From a virus (taxonomy: Duplodnaviria > Heunggongvirae > Uroviricota > Caudoviricetes), in IMG/VR virus record IMGVR_UViG_2563366895_000004: 28,177 nucleotides of DNA; one strand, 5' to 3'. This document shows positions 9,020 to 19,407 of the stretch, piece after piece. The notes beneath the pieces were generated by a model. It searched no databases and was not told where the DNA came from. It was given only the letters and a program-made list of their open reading frames with translations. How positions within the stretch are numbered: the stretch's first letter is position 1; every line of letters begins with the position of its first letter. Position numbers and translations under genes: made by a program.

Positions 9020-9226
9020 CTTCATTTTCACTTTTTTAAATCCAACGACAGACGGCTGGCATTTAAGTATTGTGAAATATTATCAAATGTAATCATCATT
9101 GATTTACAAAAGATACATTTTGCCCCGAAAGGATTCATGTCAGAAACATCAAAAGATGATGTTCTATACTGGGAACCATGACAACACGGGCATCTAAAGT
9201 GAATATGGTTTGTAATATTGTCTACC

Positions 9227-9439
9227 TCAAAGCGCCACTACATGAACAGCGGCAGGACCTTTAGGTCCGTTCTCAATACCAAATTCAACTTCCTGATTCT
9301 CAGTTAATGTTTTGAAATCGTTGCTCTGAATTGCTGAGAAATGGACAAACACATCTTTGCTGCCATCTTTCGGCGTGATGAAACCAAAACCTTTTTCAGG
9401 GTTAAACCATTTCACTAAACCAGTCATTTTGTTAGACAT
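9227..9439 (-). CDS. cspI: Cold shock protein, CspA family
   Basis: 70 aa, '[38 protein letters not shown]...' with RNP1/RNP2-type motifs. Long AT-rich upstream region (9440..9800) typical of csp 5'UTRs. Symbol by Qin context. Confidence 0.8.
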
Positions 9440-9802
9440 AATTATTACCTTTTGAAGAAATTAGCCCTTGGGCAGAATGGTCCGAAAAAAAATATCAGAG
9501 AGAAAAACCAACAAGGAAATCTCAAGAGGTACAAATAATAAAATTATAACAATGACTGCTTCAGATAAATTTGTAACAAACCAGAACACCATTAACGCAT
9601 GATTAACCACCCATAGCAAGGATTACTTTTGTAAAGAAAAACACAGCAATGAAAGAATAGCTTTATTTATTAATAATAACGTGTCATTCTGATTAAGACC
9701 TTTTATCTTACCCTTAAGATTTCAGGAATTTTGGCTCATGGAAGAGTCCTTTTTATTTAAATTTTACATTCCGCGATGTAAATGTTCCGATTTAATATTA
9801 CC

Positions 9803-10826
<1,024 letters not shown>

Positions 10827-10830
<4 letters not shown>

Positions 10831-11138
10831 AGATATTTATGATGAGGACGCTCGTGCTTATTGGCAGGATTTTCAATCTTAAAGGAGTACTGATGCTGCA
10901 GATAAGACTCAACTTTTTCTGACAATTTTTCTGCTACTTCCAGGAAGACTTGCCGGACGCTCATTCTGGCTGCTGCCTCATAAAACTCCAGCGCAGCTCC
11001 TTCAACACGGTCCATGGCGACATCCAGGCCAAAAATTTCACCGTCAAAGCGTTCTTTGTCCTGTAAGGCTACAGTTACCGTAACTTTATTCTCAAAATTA
11101 CGGACTCCTTTCACAACCAGTTCATAGTCTTGAGTCAT
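10827..11138 (-). CDS. ydfR: Qin-type YdfR protein of unknown function, located between holin and endolysin
   Basis: 103-aa ORF overlapping the endolysin start by 4 nt. Length and position match recalled K-12 ydfR. Confidence 0.6.
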
Positions 11139-11142
11139 TGGA

Positions 11143-11358
11143 TTACTCTCCTCTCGCAGTCTTACGCCTGTCTTCTTTAATCTTGAAATAAAGATTTGTC
11201 AGATACGTCAGCATGCCAAATACCAGACTACCCAATACACCTATTGCCGCCCACTGTGAGGGCGTGACTTTATCGAGCAACTGTAAAAACCAGTAGCCAG
11301 CACTGCCTGCAGAGGTGCTGTAGGCGATGCCCGTTGTTAACTTATCCATGGATTTCAT
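11143..11358 (-). CDS. essQ: Class II holin (S21-like pinholin) with dual-start motif
   Basis: 71 aa '[26 protein letters not shown]...[30 protein letters not shown]'; two TM segments; Met1/Met4 dual start. Near-identical in pattern to recalled phage 21 S. Confidence 0.85.
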
Positions 11359-11548
11359 AGCCTCACCTCCGCAGATAACGGATGGTGTACACGGTTTGGT
11401 TCGAAGAAGGAAAGAAGTTACATTAGCGTAAGGCCCGAACATCTATTCAAAAAGAAAAACGCCAGCAATTATTCTGGCGTAGCTAAAAATATCGTATAAT
11501 CTTACACTTCAAAAAATAACTTTATAAAATGCCATCACATCATATCTT

Positions 11549-12271
11549 CTAAGAAAATCTTGATAAATATTGGTGCGGAGGCACACCAAAATATCCTCTA
11601 AAAACACTTACAAAATATGATGCATTGTCATACCCGCATATTCCCGCCACCTTGCCGACAGTATGGTTACTGTAGATCAATAATCTTTGCGCCATCATCA
11701 TTCGTTCTTCAAGAATTAATTTACTAAACGATAATCCTTCGTCTTTTAATTTTCTTTTTAACAAACTCTCGCTCATATATAATCTTGAAGATATATCACA
11801 AAGTCTCCATGACGCTGAGATATCCGAGTGAATAATAGCCTTAACTTTACAACCTAAGCTATTAAGACTTCCGAACAAAAAACTTTGCACTATTTTCTCT
11901 GAAGATAAGACAGCAAGACATGCAAGTGATATTTGATTTCTAACTACATCCACGGTTTTGCTATCACAATTCAAGCATGCAACCAAGTTCTTTAACAATG
12001 AAAAATCTTCACATTCTACTATCAAGTATGACGTATAAAACCTTCTTACAGAAAAAGGTGAGAGTGTGTAGTTTTTAAAGAAATCATTAACTGTTTTCTC
12101 CTCAACATCTACGATCATTAGATGATCTGTATTTGACGAAAAAAGATCTTTTAAATTGTATTCAATGAGGACAGCATTTCCTTTTTTAAACAAAATATCT
12201 TCTTTACCAATTCGGACACCAAACGAGTTCAACACCAAAATGATAGAACATATGTATGACATATTATCCAC
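11549..12271 (-). CDS. AraC/XylS-family transcriptional regulator (AppY/GadX/Rns-like), AT-rich moron
   Basis: 240 aa; C-terminal double HTH 'SESLLKRKLKDEGLSFSKLILEERMMMAQRLL...GYDNASYFVSVFRGYFGVPPHQY'. Low-GC codon usage; about 400-bp AT-rich upstream region. Confidence 0.75.
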   Translation of the reverse strand: MDNMSYICSIILVLNSFGVRIGKEDILFKKGNAVLIEYNLKDLFSSNTDHLMIVDVEEKTVNDFFKNYTLSPFSVRRFYTSYLIVECEDFSLLKNLVACLNCDSKTVDVVRNQISLACLAVLSSEKIVQSFLFGSLNSLGCKVKAIIHSDISASWRLCDISSRLYMSESLLKRKLKDEGLSFSKLILEERMMMAQRLLIYSNHTVGKVAGICGYDNASYFVSVFRGYFGVPPHQYLSRFS

Positions 12272-12668
12272 CTGATATCATTGGGGTTACACCAGGTAAG
12301 TATAGGTGGAAAATCAATATTCGCCAGTTCAACAATAAGGAAAATCTCATTGCATCACAACTATAAAACCATGTGTTTAACTCACAAAAAACAAATCATT
12401 AAACTAATCTGTTATATTATAATAGCTGCGTGCAATAATAATATTATATGCTCTTTATATTCACTTGAAATATCTTCATATAAAAACAGATTGAATAAAA
12501 TCTTTTGGGGCTGGTATGTTTACCAACATTAAATTGCATCTCAATGTTTTCTTTAGCGTGAACAGGATTTTTATAAAAACTGACACTATGAGCATCATAG
12601 CGTAGTTTTTACGATTGTAAATATCCTGCATACAGGAACTCATCACTTTCAGATGATATCGCATACAG

Positions 12669-13628
12669 TTAATTCACCATCAGTCTTAGAGCCAGTTCTT
12701 CCGGATAGGGATCGAAGTAATTCTGTGTAAGCAAGTAATCATTAGGATACTCACCCAGATAATGCTTCAGCAGAGTCAACGGCGCAAGAAGAGGCAATGT
12801 GCCAAAGCGATAGTTAAGTATAACCTCGCTCAACTCTTTACGCTGGCGTGTACTTAAGTAATTACTAAAATACCCCTGTATATGCATCAGCACATTCGTG
12901 TGATTTTTACGTGATGCTGGTTTTCTGAGAATCGCCATCAGATTATCACGATACACCTCAAAGTATGATTCAAGGTCCGCCCACTCGTGTATTGCAGCCA
13001 CAAATGGTCCCATATCTTTATAGCCTGCCTGGCTATGCGCCAACAACTGAAGCTTATAACGACTATGAAAAGCTAATAACTCTCTTCTTGATAATTTCTC
13101 CTTGTAAAGGTGATTGAGCTCATGCAAAGCAAAAACTCTTTCAATAAAATTCTCACGAAGCACTGGATCATGTAATCGCCCATCCTCTTCAACCGGTAGC
13201 CAGGAAAACTTTTCCATCAAAGTGCTCGTAAATAGTCCCACTCCATCTTTACGACCTCGATTACCATTTTCATCATAGACACGCACGCGCTCCATGCCAC
13301 AGCTGGGAGATTTAGCACAAACCACAAACCCCGATACATCCTTTAATTTGTCCATATAAGAACGACTAAACTCTGTCATTCTCTCTGTCACATCCTCATT
13401 CTGGTCATGGCTGAAACACATCCGTATATTTCCTTGCTTCGAGCGCACAAGTCGTAGAGCAGGACGCGGAACTGGCAGCCCTATAGCCATTTCCGGACAT
13501 ACTGGTCTGAATGTTACCCATTCCACTAATTTGTCCATTAAAAAGTCATCTCTTTTGTGACCACCATCAAAACGAACAGCAGAACCGCCCAAACAACCGC
13601 TGATCCCAATCACAGGTTTTTTTATCAT
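12669..13628 (-). CDS. DUF523 (TudS-like) / DUF1722 (YbgA-like) fusion protein
   Basis: 319 aa; N-terminal 'GISGCLGGSAVRFDGGHK' and further Cys residues typical of the DUF523 Fe-S family; C-terminal half resembles YbgA. Family assignment from memory. Confidence 0.55.
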   Translation of the reverse strand: MIKKPVIGISGCLGGSAVRFDGGHKRDDFLMDKLVEWVTFRPVCPEMAIGLPVPRPALRLVRSKQGNIRMCFSHDQNEDVTERMTEFSRSYMDKLKDVSGFVVCAKSPSCGMERVRVYDENGNRGRKDGVGLFTSTLMEKFSWLPVEEDGRLHDPVLRENFIERVFALHELNHLYKEKLSRRELLAFHSRYKLQLLAHSQAGYKDMGPFVAAIHEWADLESYFEVYRDNLMAILRKPASRKNHTNVLMHIQGYFSNYLSTRQRKELSEVILNYRFGTLPLLAPLTLLKHYLGEYPNDYLLTQNYFDPYPEELALRLMVN

Positions 13629-13820
13629 TTCCTCCCCCTTGACTAATTCATTAACACATAAACTTTGTAGTGCACGGACTAAATTGCCTTTCTGGCTTCA
13701 TCACTGACAATTTTTCTGTTATTGACTATTCCTAATATAGTAGGAAAGTTCTTTAAGTGATCGGTCGTACTCATCTATCTTTCATACTTACTCTCAACTA
13801 TCAAAAGTACAGGATTTATT

Positions 13821-14345
13821 ATGAAGTTATGGCCTGTGTTGACTGGCATTGCACTCTCTTTCACTCTTATAGCATGTAAGGCCCCGACACAACCTAAAGG
13901 TGTGCAGCCGATTACAAATTTTGACGCCAACCGCTACCTCGGAAAATGGTATGAAATAGCTCGCCTCGAGAACTGGTTCGAACGTGGTCTGGAACAGGTC
14001 AGCGCTACTTATGAAAAACGGAACGACGGAGGGATTCGCGTACTTAACCGTGGATACGATCCAACGAAAAACAAATGGAGCGAGAGCGAAGGTAAAGCAT
14101 ACTTTACTGGAGATACTAAAACTGCAGCGTTGAAAGTTTCGTTTTTTGGCCCCTTCTATGGTGGCTATAATGTAATCAAACTGGATGATGAGTATAAGTA
14201 TGCTCTTGTCAGTGGTCCGAACAGAGAATACCTATGGATTCTGGCAAGGACCCAAACTATTCCAGATAATGTAAAAGCAGACTATGTGCGTACCGCTCAA
14301 AAGTTGGGATTCAATGTCAATGAACTATTATGGGTTAAACAATAA
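13821..14345 (+). CDS. Bacterial lipocalin (Blc-like) outer-membrane lipoprotein
   Basis: 174 aa; signal peptide with lipobox 'LIAC'; lipocalin motif 'NFDANRYLGKWYEIARLENWFERG'; 'ALKVSFFGPFYGGYNVI' closely resembles recalled E. coli Blc. RBS 'aggat' upstream. Confidence 0.85.
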   Translation: MKLWPVLTGIALSFTLIACKAPTQPKGVQPITNFDANRYLGKWYEIARLENWFERGLEQVSATYEKRNDGGIRVLNRGYDPTKNKWSESEGKAYFTGDTKTAALKVSFFGPFYGGYNVIKLDDEYKYALVSGPNREYLWILARTQTIPDNVKADYVRTAQKLGFNVNELLWVKQ

Positions 14346-14373
14346 AATCCCCACCCGAAATGATACTTATTAG

Positions 14374-14400
14374 AAAAAAACCAGCCTTTGGGGAGGCTGG
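14374..14400 (-). terminator. Candidate tR'-like intrinsic terminator of the short late leader transcript
   Basis: Stem 'ccagcct'/'aggctgg' (14381..14400) followed on the minus strand by a U-run. Lies about 50 nt downstream of the candidate promoter. Confidence 0.5.
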
Positions 14401-14452
14401 CTAAATCAGGAAATAAGCTGTTATATGATAATAACTACGTTGCGATTCCAAC

Positions 14453-14488
14453 ATTTAAAATGTTAGACTAATGAAAATCAGACAGCAA
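14453..14488 (-). promoter_or_regulatory. Candidate late promoter pR' (with qut region)
   Basis: Minus-strand 'TTGCTG'-17 bp-'TAACAT' immediately after the Q stop codon; expected position of pR' in lambdoid phages. Confidence 0.4.
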
Positions 14489-14500
14489 CTTTTCCTTTAA

Positions 14501-14878
14501 TTATTTCGAACAATCAGCATCCATCTCCAATCGGAGATCCAACACCATCAGCATGCCCTCCACTACGCCCTCAGCTTTCTGGAGCATCCTGCCAACCCAA
14601 CAATCAGATCGCCCATGCTTACGTGCAAGCGCCATAAAAGTCATGCCGCCGACATAATAGTCCACCAATAAATCATGTAAATCGCTGTTGTTTTTTTTCA
14701 GGCGAGCCATACATTCACAAATGATCATCGCGTCATCGTCACAGCATTGCGGACGAGATCTTACTTTTGAAGGAATTAATCCCTTAAAACCGGCGGCAAT
14801 GGACGACCAGGTCACATCTTCATGATTATTAGCCGCCCATGCCCCCCAACGCTCAAGAACCATCTGAATATCACGCAT
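14501..14878 (-). CDS. Late antitermination protein Q (short QuuD/phage-82-type)
   Basis: '[35 protein letters not shown]...[20 protein letters not shown]...' closely matches recalled QuuD of DLP12. ORF track start 14893; the internal Met at 14878 is the likely start. Confidence 0.8.
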
Positions 14879-14895
14879 CAACTTACTCCACAAAA

Positions 14896-15945
14896 TTAGG
14901 CCAGCACACCAATTGCCAGCGCGCGATCGATAAATCGAAAAATCAGCTCCAGTTGGGAGCCATACTTCTCTTCAAATGCCACGGTATCCGTATGCAACTC
15001 GTCGTGATGCTTTCTGCACAAAGGCAAAACAAAGAGATCATGTGCTTTGGTTCCCATTCCGCCCTGCCCGTGACCAATCAGATGATGCGGATCGTCGGCT
15101 GGCATACCGCAGCAAGCACACGGCTGTGTCTTAACCCAGCGTGTGTATTTCTCCTTAACCCACCGGTGACGTTTAGGCAGCTTCATGAAAGATTCCGGAG
15201 ACTCTGGATCAACGGTGATGCTTACCACCGTCTTTTCCTGTGATGGGTTTTGTTGCTGGTGGGCGTGAGGCAACGGTGCAAGATTTTTTGTGCGCTGTTT
15301 CAATATGCTGGTGGCGGTCTGCTCTCCCGGTACGATGTCGCTTTCGCGGTACACCGAGCAGATTTTTTCCGCTGGTAATCCCAGCGAGCGACGTAATACC
15401 GCTTCCGGTAGCGCGTCCGCCAGCTGATTGCGGACCGCCCACCAGGATAATTCAGCCAGAGATAATTCACGCTCCTGCGTACCGCTTATTGCGTGACCGA
15501 TGACGTCAATCATCCATGCTGACAGGTTTTGATGAGCAAGTTGCTCGAGTGATTCGGATGTCTGGTCACGCAGCTGGTTGTCGCAGTGCCAGCACAACAC
15601 CATTGCGCCGGTACCATATCGGTGAATAACGGTTTCGCTGTGATGATAATCGCCGTGTGGCCACTGGCAGGATTTAATATGGCGCAACAGCCAGTCAGAC
15701 AATGCACCAGCACCACCAGCAGCACGAATTACCCGTGCGTTACTGAAAAACGGCAGCAATGTTTTGTCTTCCACCAGCGGCTGGCGAACGGCAGGAACGA
15801 CCCCGGACGGCAGATTACGCATGCTTTTCGGTTCCGGCTCCACCAGTACCCGGGTATTGTGGAATACCGGCATGGATTCACGGCCCGGCTTAACGACCAC
15901 CAGCCCAAGTTCCGGTACCAGAACAGGTCGAAGTAATACCCGCAC
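14896..15945 (-). CDS. ydfU: YdfU-like phage protein with C-terminal Cys/His (HNH-like) motif; GTG start
   Basis: 349-aa ORF; C-terminal '[21 protein letters not shown]...CRKHHDELH'. Length matches recalled K-12 YdfU. Confidence 0.6.
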
Positions 15946-15946
15946 G

Positions 15947-16225
15947 TTACCTCCAGATGCGTTGCTGGAATGTACGGGACGGACGCGGTGGGCGTTCGGA
16001 GTAAGGCAATCTGACTGAGATTATCCAGTGACGGTAGTCGAGACTAAGGGCTTTCTTAACCTCGTATCCGCGCCTGCGGTAACACTGAATTATCCATTCA
16101 GCCTGCTCTTCAGTGCATGGAGGGTGTTGGAACCATTCAGACTTGAATGCGTGAGAATACCGCTCGTGCGTGCAGACAAGAACGGGCGAATTATCAGAAT
16201 TGTAATATTTTACGTTGCGTGCCAT
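15947..16225 (-). CDS. Hypothetical protein, stop one nucleotide before the ydfU GTG start (coupled)
   Basis: 92-aa ORF; 'taa-c-gtg' junction with ydfU. Confidence 0.4.
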   Translation of the reverse strand: MARNVKYYNSDNSPVLVCTHERYSHAFKSEWFQHPPCTEEQAEWIIQCYRRRGYEVKKALSLDYRHWIISVRLPYSERPPRPSRTFQQRIWR

Positions 16226-17565: not shown

Positions 17566-17596
17566 AAGAGCCACCCGCAGGTGGCTCTTACTTTTA
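17566..17596. terminator. Hairpin (possible bidirectional terminator) overlapping the stop codon of the 591-aa gene
   Basis: Perfect 9-bp stem 'aagagccac'/'gtggctctt' with loop 'ccgcag'; T/A-rich flanks on both sides. Confidence 0.5.
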
Positions 17597-19369
17597 CTCT
17601 TGCAATTCGATGATCTGCTCTTTACCTAGTAGATGATTAATAATATTTAATACTTTTTCTCTGTTCTGGAAGAATCTTGCTATATAACTATTGGGGAAGA
17701 CTTCCTGTATGTGATTATAAGTATCAGAAGCCAGCTCTATACATTCCTCCAGTGAAACGTTTCGGCTATAAGAGAAGATGTGATTCTCCACAGAGGAAAC
17801 TTCTATTTTATTCATGAGTATGGATATTAAAACATAATTTCCATGAATCATTATTTGATGAATCTGCTTCTGATTTTCCATATCTACTGATAGTAGTTTA
17901 ACTATACTTTCTTGCAATATATCATTTGCTAATCTATAAGCATTTACTTTATTTATTATATCTAAACCGGTAGGACCATTTTCAGCTGGGAATACTTTTT
18001 CATAAAGACCTCCCCAGCTTTCAAAAAAACGTCCTCTATTTAGTTTTAAGGAAGATATCAATGTTTCATCTTTAGAGGCACACACTAATGCGTTTAAAGC
18101 ATCATCAATATCAATGGTATTACCACCTGTCTGGCTGGAGTCTTCTTGCCTGAGTAGTTTGTAGCTATATCCGCCAATAAAGTTTATTTCTCTTTGTATT
18201 CTTTGTTGCTCGGGCCTCTGTGATGAGAAATCTCTTCCAGTAACCCTGTTTTGTGTATTGTTGAATTTAGTGACAGAGGTTAAAAAATCTTCTTTTGCTG
18301 CACTGATAAATCTAATGCTCACCTTGATTAGATCTTTTTTTTCTTCGGGTAAAGAGTTGAACACTTCACCAATAGTGCTTACAGTTTGAGCTCCATTTAT
18401 TATACTCAGACTTTTAAAACTAAATAGCCCGTACTTCCTGCTTGTACTTAAGTTGATCATGCTTTCTTCTACATCACTATATACAGCAGTTATCCCATTG
18501 TTATAGTACCAAAAATTCTCCGGCTTTTCACTTAATGTTTTCTTTATCCCAGAGTTTATGGATGAATTACCGAGGACACTTCTTATATTTTTCTCGAACA
18601 GAGAGTACTTGTACTTTTCCCACCAGTCGTATAGGATCCTTGCGGATATTGTTCCGTATATTGCTTTATAAGGTTCTGCTATCTCTCCATAACTTTCAAG
18701 GTGAACATTGCTAACATTTATAGATTTTGATCGATCATTAGAAAGACCATCCATTATCACTTGTATACCTGCCGGCTCGAATAGCACTGAATACTCATCT
18801 CTATTCTCTATATCTTTAAATAATAGAGACCGATTCTGAACCTTTTCCCAAAACTCTATGTCTGATTTTACTTCTTCGCTTGGCTCATGAACCCCTGTAT
18901 ATATAAATACACATATACATTTATATGTAAATCCTGAGATTGCTTCAATTATGGAGTCTTTGTTTCTTAAAAACCTTTCGTTAAATGTTGTAAAGTCGCT
19001 GGCTATTACTTTTGCGCATGCGTCTTTGAATCTTCCGAATTCTCTTGTGGTTATAGAACCGTCGCCATTTTTAATATATTTTGACTGAACTATTACTATC
19101 TTTCTCGAATTTTTATTAACATAAACTGCATCTATCCCGCCATCATCTTTTCCATCGCAGACAGCATTAGCAGCTAACTCAGGGTCTGGTTCATCACCAT
19201 ACAAGCTGATTGCATGCGCAGCTACACAGCGTGTAATTAGAGTTTCTTTCCTATGCTCTCCTACGGAATTAATATCTTTCATATCAATAAAAGTTCCGTA
19301 TATAGACTCTAATTGATTAGTTATGCGTACTAAACCTGCTGTTTGCGTGGCTTTGTCGTACTGGGACAT
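17594..19369 (-). CDS. Putative abortive-infection / phage-defence protein (AIPR-like; N-terminal PD-(D/E)xK-like motif)
   Basis: 591-aa AT-rich ORF with own promoter and terminator. 'DGGIDAVYVNKNSRKIVIVQSKY' fits a D...(E/Q)xK nuclease motif; 'NNGIT' and 'INGAQT' motifs. Family assignment is from memory and needs an HMM search. Confidence 0.5.
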   Translation of the reverse strand: MSQYDKATQTAGLVRITNQLESIYGTFIDMKDINSVGEHRKETLITRCVAAHAISLYGDEPDPELAANAVCDGKDDGGIDAVYVNKNSRKIVIVQSKYIKNGDGSITTREFGRFKDACAKVIASDFTTFNERFLRNKDSIIEAISGFTYKCICVFIYTGVHEPSEEVKSDIEFWEKVQNRSLLFKDIENRDEYSVLFEPAGIQVIMDGLSNDRSKSINVSNVHLESYGEIAEPYKAIYGTISARILYDWWEKYKYSLFEKNIRSVLGNSSINSGIKKTLSEKPENFWYYNNGITAVYSDVEESMINLSTSRKYGLFSFKSLSIINGAQTVSTIGEVFNSLPEEKKDLIKVSIRFISAAKEDFLTSVTKFNNTQNRVTGRDFSSQRPEQQRIQREINFIGGYSYKLLRQEDSSQTGGNTIDIDDALNALVCASKDETLISSLKLNRGRFFESWGGLYEKVFPAENGPTGLDIINKVNAYRLANDILQESIVKLLSVDMENQKQIHQIMIHGNYVLISILMNKIEVSSVENHIFSYSRNVSLEECIELASDTYNHIQEVFPNSYIARFFQNREKVLNIINHLLGKEQIIELQE

Positions 19370-19407
19370 CCTTTGCGCTCCTGAACATGTAACAAAATAT
19401 GATTCGC

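Follow-up and report, generated by a model that had tools for sequence, protein, structure and literature searches.

A cargo gene between the antiterminator and lysis genes of a Qin-type prophage of Escherichia coli encodes an AraC/XylS-family regulator related to PatE and Psr

The present study deals with a regulatory gene located at positions 11549..12262 of a 28,177-nucleotide stretch of DNA filed as a tailed virus of the Caudoviricetes (IMG/VR record IMGVR_UViG_2563366895_000004), which is called the window below. The gene was first noticed in a reading of the bare letters by a model, here called the sequence-only reading, as a prophage-borne AraC-family regulator. Our analysis places it in a defective lambdoid prophage of E. 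coli and makes it probable that it is a cargo gene, a so-called moron, encoding an AraC/XylS-type activator of the PatE/Psr clade that acts on promoters of the host, among which gadE and hdeAB are the likeliest targets.

An intact open reading frame (ORF) of the AraC/XylS family was confirmed at 11549..12271 on the minus strand. Pfam detects HTH_18 at residues 161-237 (2.9e-16, 60 bits at a cutoff of 33.6) and HTH_AraC (5.7e-11, 42.7 bits, cutoff 26.6). A regulatory beta/alpha domain makes up the ~130 N-terminal residues of the protein, and a dual helix-turn-helix (HTH) occupies residues ~136-232 of the C-terminal part; hence, the C-terminal domain of ~100 aa with two HTH motifs that defines the AraC/XylS family was found both by Pfam and by model superposition. 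The AlphaFold model reaches a mean predicted local distance difference test score (pLDDT) of 78, with values >90 over much of the C-terminal domain, and displays an N-terminal beta/alpha domain followed by a seven-helix C-terminal domain. When the DNA-binding domain of this model was compared with GadX (3mkl) using Foldseek, a template modelling (TM) score of 0.86-0.89 and a root-mean-square deviation of 1.3-1.6 A were obtained. Full-chain matches to CsvR, Rns and ToxT had E values of 4e-11 to 1e-7 and a different orientation of the domains. The label Rns-like given in the sequence-only reading is thus appropriate for the general fold and the DNA-binding domain and for nothing beyond these.

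The segment SESLLKRKLK is identical in the regulator and PatE, and we take it to be recognition helix 1 from a hand alignment to MarA (PDB 1BL0). The second recognition helix reads A-S-Y-F-V-S in the window protein versus V-S-Y-F-T-Y in PatE, and it differs from GadX as well. Because the first recognition helix equals that of PatE while the second one differs, the target sites may overlap with those of PatE without being identical. Among the alignment positions that never vary are those of the hydrophobic core of each HTH motif and that of the lysine K169, which aligns with K170 of AppY. The exchange K170E abolishes DNA binding of AppY (AppY paper). As judged from its sequence, the DNA-binding core of the regulator is intact and the DNA-contact lysine is present. 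Moreover, the alleles examined are all uninterrupted and without frameshifts, and their pairwise ratios of nonsynonymous to synonymous substitution (dN/dS) are 0.17-0.27 (58-85% protein identity; dS 0.3-1.6). The low dN/dS, the invariant HTH cores including K169 and the fold match in AlphaFold and Foldseek lead us to judge the regulator functional and under purifying selection. Two objections that the sequence-only reading had raised against itself, a lack of DNA-binding activity and closest homologues that are non-regulatory pseudogenes, find no support at this level, since the core with its invariant lysine is preserved, the nearest characterised relatives are PatE and PsrA, and selection on the alleles is evident from dN/dS.

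The homology search for the closest characterised regulator, proposed as a check in the sequence-only reading, identified PatE of O157:H7 with 47% identity over the full length (blastp and alignment), followed by PsrA (ECs1087, 37%), GadW (33%), AppY (30%), YdeO (28%) and GadX (26%, rising to 41% within the DNA-binding domain). The PsrA/PsrB-like copy of an Stx2k phage, itself 89% identical to PsrA, shares 36% of its residues with the window protein. Blastp alignments covering residues 1-232 or more were obtained with GadW (33%, 2e-45), AppY (30%, 4e-41) and YdeO (29%, 1e-32), and the N-terminal motif M-x-x-x-C-S-V-I is common to the regulator and the subfamily of GadW/AppY/YdeO type, which comprises proteins of ~240-275 aa connected to the acid fitness island. 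The homology therefore extends over the full length including the N-terminal domain, and NCBIfam, blastp and the alignment show the regulator to be of the AppY/GadW/GadX/YdeO type, in line with the AppY/GadX label given from the letters. An identity matrix and a neighbour-joining tree were calculated from an alignment of 14 sequences. In this tree without bootstrap values the regulator and its alleles are sister to the PatE group, Psr forms the next branch, and GadW, AppY, YdeO and GadX fall outside. Hence, like the members of the PatE/Psr group the gene is encoded by a prophage or phage and clusters with them, not with the chromosomal paralogues. However, at 47% identity it represents, by sequence comparison, a separate lineage and not the orthologue of PatE. 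The best NCBIfam match is YdeO and stays far below the equivalog cutoff, so that the protein is classified as a paralogue-level relative and not as the orthologue of YdeO, GadX or any other named regulator. Six further Psr homologues are credited to Tree et al. 2011, and one of them may be an allele of this gene. Isolated phages have homologues too, namely IdasGreatGrand (85.6%), 1H12 / Lambda_ev (76%) and ev099 (46%).

The genomic setting is that of phage cargo. The regulator is the last gene of a group of three located between the antiterminator gene Q and the holin gene; the other two encode the outer-membrane lipocalin Blc and a YbgA-like protein. In the Qin prophage of K-12 the slot between Q and holin is occupied by cspB/cspF, in DLP12 by nmpC. 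The three genes were found again in prophages of DLP12 type that have rusA-ylcG-Q and essD (strains S1bESBLb and WP7) as well as in two isolated phages, 1H12 and IdasGreatGrand, each time between Q and holin and with regulator alleles of 76-85% protein identity. By this comparison of loci, the blc / ybgA-like / araC-like trio is a portable cargo cassette between Q and the lysis genes. It shows the features of a moron, i.e. insertion between phage modules, a slot with varying cargo, an own terminator, a conserved promoter-like element (predicted) and a deviant GC content. The protein combining 2-thiouracil desulfurase (TudS) and DUF1722 domains and Blc accompany the regulator at all cassette loci. 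More distant clade members, P0013 (58%) and P0015 (49%), are situated between a Q of a different Pfam family and the holin gene, without blc or ybgA.

The cassette is widespread in E. coli. Near-identical or allelic DNA is carried by 976 of 5426 complete genomes, 866 of them covering >=80% of the query, and a sensitive search with the gene alone found full-length copies in 996 of the complete genomes (~18%). The carriers originate from pig, chicken and wastewater and include a laboratory B strain. In E. coli B REL606 the copy (ECB_RS08050, 99.6% nucleotide identity) resides in the Qin prophage between ydfJ and rspB. An IS3 element has interrupted ybgA independently in REL606 and a15, and the regulator is intact in both strains; in strain 19M19 an IS1A has entered the AT-rich spacer at its edge next to ybgA. 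The spacer and ybgA thus attract insertion sequences. A scan of representative genomes across species returned one copy of 84% identity and two unrelated HTH matches, and says little about the host range. This 84%-identical copy lies on a contig of 3.2 kb (JARKOR010000151.1) binned as 'Candidatus Nanosynbacter' and has the same upstream 17-mer; the contig almost certainly derives from an Escherichia phage and was binned wrongly.

The gene start and the base composition deserve closer inspection. The GTG at 12271 falls within the Shine-Dalgarno sequence AGGTGG (12273..12268), while the ATG at 12262 is located 5 nt past it and serves as start of the RefSeq entry WP_001616186.1 (714 nt); the product most likely has, therefore, 237 aa and not the 240 aa that result from the alternative GTG start. 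The sequence CAGGTGGAT is conserved among the cassette alleles, and PatE-type relatives have GGTGGAT or GGGGGAT in the ribosome-binding region. The coding sequence has a GC content of 33.2% (30.7% at third codon positions) and is preceded by an intergenic leader of 406 bp with 31.0% GC. Together, the region 11549-12668 has 32.4% GC compared with a window mean of 43.8%, which puts it into the lowest 1.8% of 1120-bp windows, and the flanking phage genes have 43-54% GC. Further AT-rich islands exist at ~1600-3000, 8200-9800 and 17600-19400. Hence, the sequence-only reading was right about an AT-rich gene with a long AT-rich leader: the ORF and the upstream region of about 400 bp are real, and its length of 240 aa has to be corrected to a likely 237 aa. 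The gene is as AT-rich as expected for a xenogeneic gene silenced by H-NS, and on the grounds of AT content such silencing is plausible. The expression of the relative psrA falls in the absence of the small RNA HnrS, a repressor of hha that antagonises Hha/H-NS (2026 paper), which for psrA is an indirect link only to xenogeneic silencing.

Table 1. Features of the regulator locus and its prophage surroundings (window coordinates)
Feature	Position	Strand	Details
AraC/XylS-family regulator gene	11549..12262	-	237 aa from ATG; RefSeq start; Pfam HTH_18 and HTH_AraC
Shine-Dalgarno sequence AGGTGG	12268..12273	-	5 nt upstream of ATG
AT-rich non-coding region	12263..12668	-	31.0% GC; between ybgA-like gene and regulator
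Proximal core promoter, putative	12299..12327	-	-35 CTGGCG 12327..12322, 17-nt spacer, -10 TATACT 12304..12299
Distal conserved element	12583..12621	-	Promoter-like TTTACA-16-TATGAT (12621..12594); 10/12 consensus matches; just past ybgA stop
Intrinsic terminator downstream of regulator, upstream of holin gene	11459..11480	-	ACGCCAG-loop-CTGGCGT, then TTTTTCTTTT
tR'-like intrinsic terminator	14379..14402	-	~100 nt downstream of Q; 9-bp stem + T7
YbgA-like protein (cassette gene 2)	12669..13628	-	319 aa; 2-thiouracil desulfurase/TudS domain PF04463 5.8e-40; DUF1722 PF08349 9.4e-40
Blc outer-membrane lipocalin homologue (cassette gene 1)	13821..14345	+	Pfam Lipocalin_2 7.5e-43; NCBIfam Blc 308.6 bits vs cutoff 267
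Antiterminator Q	14501..14893	-	Pfam Phage_antitermQ 8e-51; RefSeq start gives 378 nt
Holin essQ, first lysis gene	11143..11358	-	Pfam P21 holin S 9.8e-34; RefSeq coordinates
Lysis cassette essQ-ydfR-rrrQ-rzpQ	9803..11358	-	Pfam holin, DUF1327, Phage_lysozyme, DUF2514

Several putative transcription signals surround the gene (Table 1). The heptamer TATACTT, ~40 nt before the start codon, is invariant in 8/8 aligned clade members including patE; a -35 hexamer precedes it by 17-18 nt, for which the window has CTGGCG, 1H12 ATGGCA and the PatE group TTGGCA. This proximal element is the probable core promoter and would give a 5' untranslated region of ~30 nt; it was missed by a scan for consensus promoters because its -35 matches only 3/6 positions. 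At the distal element, every cassette allele has the 17-mer TTTACAATCGTAAAAAC without change. The element overlaps a hairpin with T-run at 12603..12583, whose stability in the window is -14.8 kcal/mol (z -5.7) but which is weak in other alleles (-8.8 and -4.5 kcal/mol). Since the hairpin weakens across the alleles and the hexamers stay exact, the sequence rather than the fold is conserved, and the element could be a distal promoter, the terminator of ybgA, or both. The terminator behind the regulator (-11.3 kcal/mol, z -3.4) was matched in stability by 0/200 shuffled sequences. The one following Q (-14.9 kcal/mol, z -3.4) would, by analogy, act as tR' and stop transcripts from the late promoter unless Q acts. 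A comparable terminator after Q is present at the P0015 locus, where a TTGGCA/TATACT element lies downstream of it; this order fits the logic of a moron whose own promoter serves it in the lysogen, induction adding read-through by Q-modified polymerase.

The middle part of the leader is variable, and alleles differ there by an indel of 55 nt. Small proteins encoded by the leader were considered and rejected (a 62-aa ORF at 12476..12664, a 28-aa ORF ending at the Shine-Dalgarno sequence and an 83-aa ORF on the plus strand), because neither frame nor length nor start is kept from allele to allele. The nucleotides of the conserved stretch are kept without synonymous drift, which points to a DNA or RNA signal instead of coding. 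The Rfam scan of 9000..16000 found only the cspA-type leader of cspI above threshold and no match within 11549-12668. The hexamer CCACCT (12309..12304), directly upstream of TATACT, complements the Shine-Dalgarno sequence exactly; neither of them changes among the cassette alleles, whereas the 25-30 nt in between vary. An RNA switch at the ribosome-binding site was nevertheless rejected, as folding, with z -0.66 and -1.43, was no better than in shuffled sequences, a stem without any variation offers no covariation, and the pairing is missing from PatE-type relatives. Because CCACCT sits in the spacer of the TATACT promoter, it would be absent from the proximal transcript; that it gates translation has a low probability and would apply to long distal or Q-dependent transcripts only.

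What might this regulator do in the cell? Several of its relatives have been linked to acid resistance and virulence. According to reviews, PatE activates gadB, gadC, gadE and hdeAB and lowers the expression of genes in LEE, the enterocyte effacement locus; PsrB binds the promoters of hdeA (-132..-45) and gadE, activates gadE/hdeAB and raises acid survival; and PsrA and PsrB repress type III secretion via GadE and YhiF. AppY binds and directly activates gadE P3, gadY and slp and improves survival in acid, and further direct targets of it include hya, app, nhaR and adiC (AppY paper). The notion in the sequence-only reading that prophage AraC regulators rewire host regulons is thus in line with the two nearest characterised relatives, which act on glutamate-dependent acid resistance (GAD) and on the type III secretion system (T3SS). 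By analogy with these proteins, gadE and hdeA are the most likely targets, although this regulon is inferred from relatives sharing 30-47% identity. In the lysogen, the late operon would halt at tR' and the regulator would be made from its own promoter, either the proximal TATACT or the distal TTTACA/TATGAT one. Its expression would probably be low, as the leader is the kind of DNA coated by H-NS, and the terminator downstream would shield the holin gene from this transcription. The protein could then bind AT-rich sites at host sigma-70 promoters and activate them, and activation of gadE and hdeAB of the acid fitness island would raise acid resistance, as with PatE, PsrB and AppY. In LEE-positive hosts, an indirect repression of type III secretion through GadE might follow. 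Upon prophage induction, Q-modified RNA polymerase would read the whole cassette, and the regulator would be made in a burst alongside the late genes.

Several points weigh against this picture. The identity to any characterised regulator is <=47%, and the protein stays below the equivalog cutoffs of NCBIfam, with 113.7 vs 348 bits for YdeO (NF007407) and 89.1 vs 500 for GadX (NF007432). The deviating second recognition helix means that the DNA sites, and hence the regulon, may differ from those of PatE and GadX. Most host strains are without LEE, so the secretion arm would be irrelevant there. The poor proximal -35 keeps the promoter assignment tentative. The published high-affinity motif of H-NS, TCGATAAATT, was not found with <=2 mismatches in 12263..12668; across the window it is not enriched (46 occurrences vs 43.3 expected, one of them at 11560..11569). 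Finally, a literature search restricted to the searchable library found no paper mentioning the regulator or the cassette.

Among the alternatives, an activator directed at host genes outside GAD, for example those for hydrogenase and cytochrome as in the case of AppY, fimbriae, biofilm or the envelope, appears unlikely but is the one to be taken most seriously. The distance to PatE and the altered helix would permit it, as would the further direct targets of AppY, a member of the same subfamily, and the varied sources of the carrier strains. However, the characterised members of this subfamily (GadX, GadW, YdeO, AppY, PatE and PsrA/B) all converge on gadE and the acid fitness island, and recognition helix 1 is the same as in PatE. 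It is still more doubtful that the regulator serves the divergent blc and the ybgA-like gene locally, perhaps responding to lipids or thiolated bases, instead of acting on host genes. Control of neighbouring genes is frequent in the AraC family, the three genes move as a unit in at least 4 phage backbones, and the fold class includes the fatty-acid-binding Rns and ToxT while Blc is a lipid-binding lipocalin. In contrast, the clade members P0013, P0015, PatE, PsrA and ev099 do without blc or ybgA, the regulator has stayed intact where IS3 destroys ybgA (a15, REL606), and its N-terminal domain is shorter than in Rns or ToxT and poorly modelled (pLDDT 52-68 at residues 61-130).

An extension of this idea takes the trio as one module, in which the N-terminal domain senses a lipid or envelope ligand handled by Blc and couples it to stress regulons of the host. 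We regard this as very improbable; if it were true, lysogens would gain a sensor-regulator circuit supplied by the phage. Least probable of all is that the gene is a xenogeneically silenced passenger without a role, hitch-hiking in a decaying prophage. The prophage is indeed defective, with the N-terminus of the terminase fused to the tail-fibre gene, and the weak -35 and the AT-rich context would suit a silent gene. Nevertheless, a dN/dS of ~0.2 over such synonymous distances and the alleles without frameshifts speak against it, as do its carriage by 1H12 and IdasGreatGrand, both of them isolated phages, and the full-length copies in almost a fifth of the complete genomes, intact even beside neighbours disrupted by insertion sequences. 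Hence, a cargo-encoded activator of host promoters, with gadE/hdeAB as likeliest targets, remains our preferred explanation.

Comparison with known systems helps to place the gene. PatE (Z0321, O-island 8 / prophage CP-933H of O157:H7 EDL933) resembles it in clade, size and two-domain layout, and likewise is prophage-borne and AT-rich (35% GC) with a TATACT promoter-like element and a ribosome-binding region of GGTGGAT type. In contrast to the regulator, patE adjoins an integrase gene and remnants of insertion sequences in a P4/P2-like island and has neither the Q-holin slot nor blc/ybgA. PsrA and PsrB (ECs1087 / Z1789, Z2104; Sp4 / OI-50 and OI-57 of O157:H7) are prophage-encoded as well, and PsrA in Sp4 is encoded in the slot that separates Q from the lysis genes located downstream; both act on host gadE/yhiF and hdeA, and the T3SS phenotype requires a LEE-positive host. 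They are, however, more distant than PatE, and in place of blc/ybgA they go along with tRNA genes, loci of T3SS effectors and pch regulators. AppY of the DLP12 prophage in K-12 belongs to the same AraC subfamily, is prophage-encoded and shares the DNA-binding lysine, but its gene is found at the far end of DLP12 beside ompT, outside the Q-holin slot, and it stands outside the PatE/Psr clade. GadW, GadX and YdeO are of the same subfamily but are chromosomal core or island genes and not phage cargo. Other morons of the slot between Q and the lysis gene S (stx in Stx phages, cspB/cspF, nmpC) share with the cassette an own terminator, a deviant GC content and the logic of read-through by Q-modified polymerase on induction; the cassette differs from them by bringing a transcription factor plus two accessory genes and not a toxin, porin or cold-shock protein. 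In phage phiSTEC1575-Stx2k (4001..6324 of the locus), the PsrA homologue mentioned above (89%) lies directly upstream of tRNA genes and stx2 A/B, and the gene for the anti-adaptor IraM is located downstream. This neighbourhood indicates that AraC-like regulators and Shiga toxin share a late-operon cargo slot.

The origin of the DNA is in agreement with the prophage setting stated in the sequence-only reading, as the neighbourhood of the gene is annotated as a Qin-type lambdoid prophage. It represents E. coli DNA, with 1.4 kb around the regulator being 100% identical in many complete genomes, and ydfJ (1..1284) flanks the left end of the prophage. Read along the minus strand, ydfU (DUF968) comes first and is followed by Q, terminator, blc on the opposite strand, the ybgA-like gene, the AT-rich spacer, the araC-like gene, terminator and lysis cassette. 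The ORF 3197..6778 (minus strand, 1193 aa) combines the N-terminus of the large terminase subunit (GpA_ATPase, residues 40-110) with a tail-fibre C-terminus that contains a Peptidase_S74 chaperone domain at residues 1050-1101. An internal deletion has thus taken out the whole block of head and tail genes, and the prophage is defective. Two further observations concern other parts of the window. An island of 31-39% GC harbours the gene for an abortive-infection phage resistance (AIPR) protein of 591 aa (4.5e-33) at 17594..19369 (minus strand), between the replication/immunity region and hokD/rem; other genes are present there in a15 and REL606, and the position looks like a swappable slot for defence cargo. 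Moreover, a full-length thermoregulator leader of cspA type (RF01766, 112.8 bits, cutoff 78) is found at 9200..9585 on the minus strand upstream of the prophage cold-shock gene cspI.

AppY, PatE and PsrA/B are textbook phage inputs into the acid-resistance and virulence circuitry of the host. By its phylogenetic position, the regulator described here represents a third line, so far unstudied, within the prophage-encoded PatE/Psr clade; it is common in E. coli, but opens no new kind of biology. If it drives gadE and hdeA, it would contribute to strain differences in acid tolerance among commensal, livestock and laboratory E. coli.

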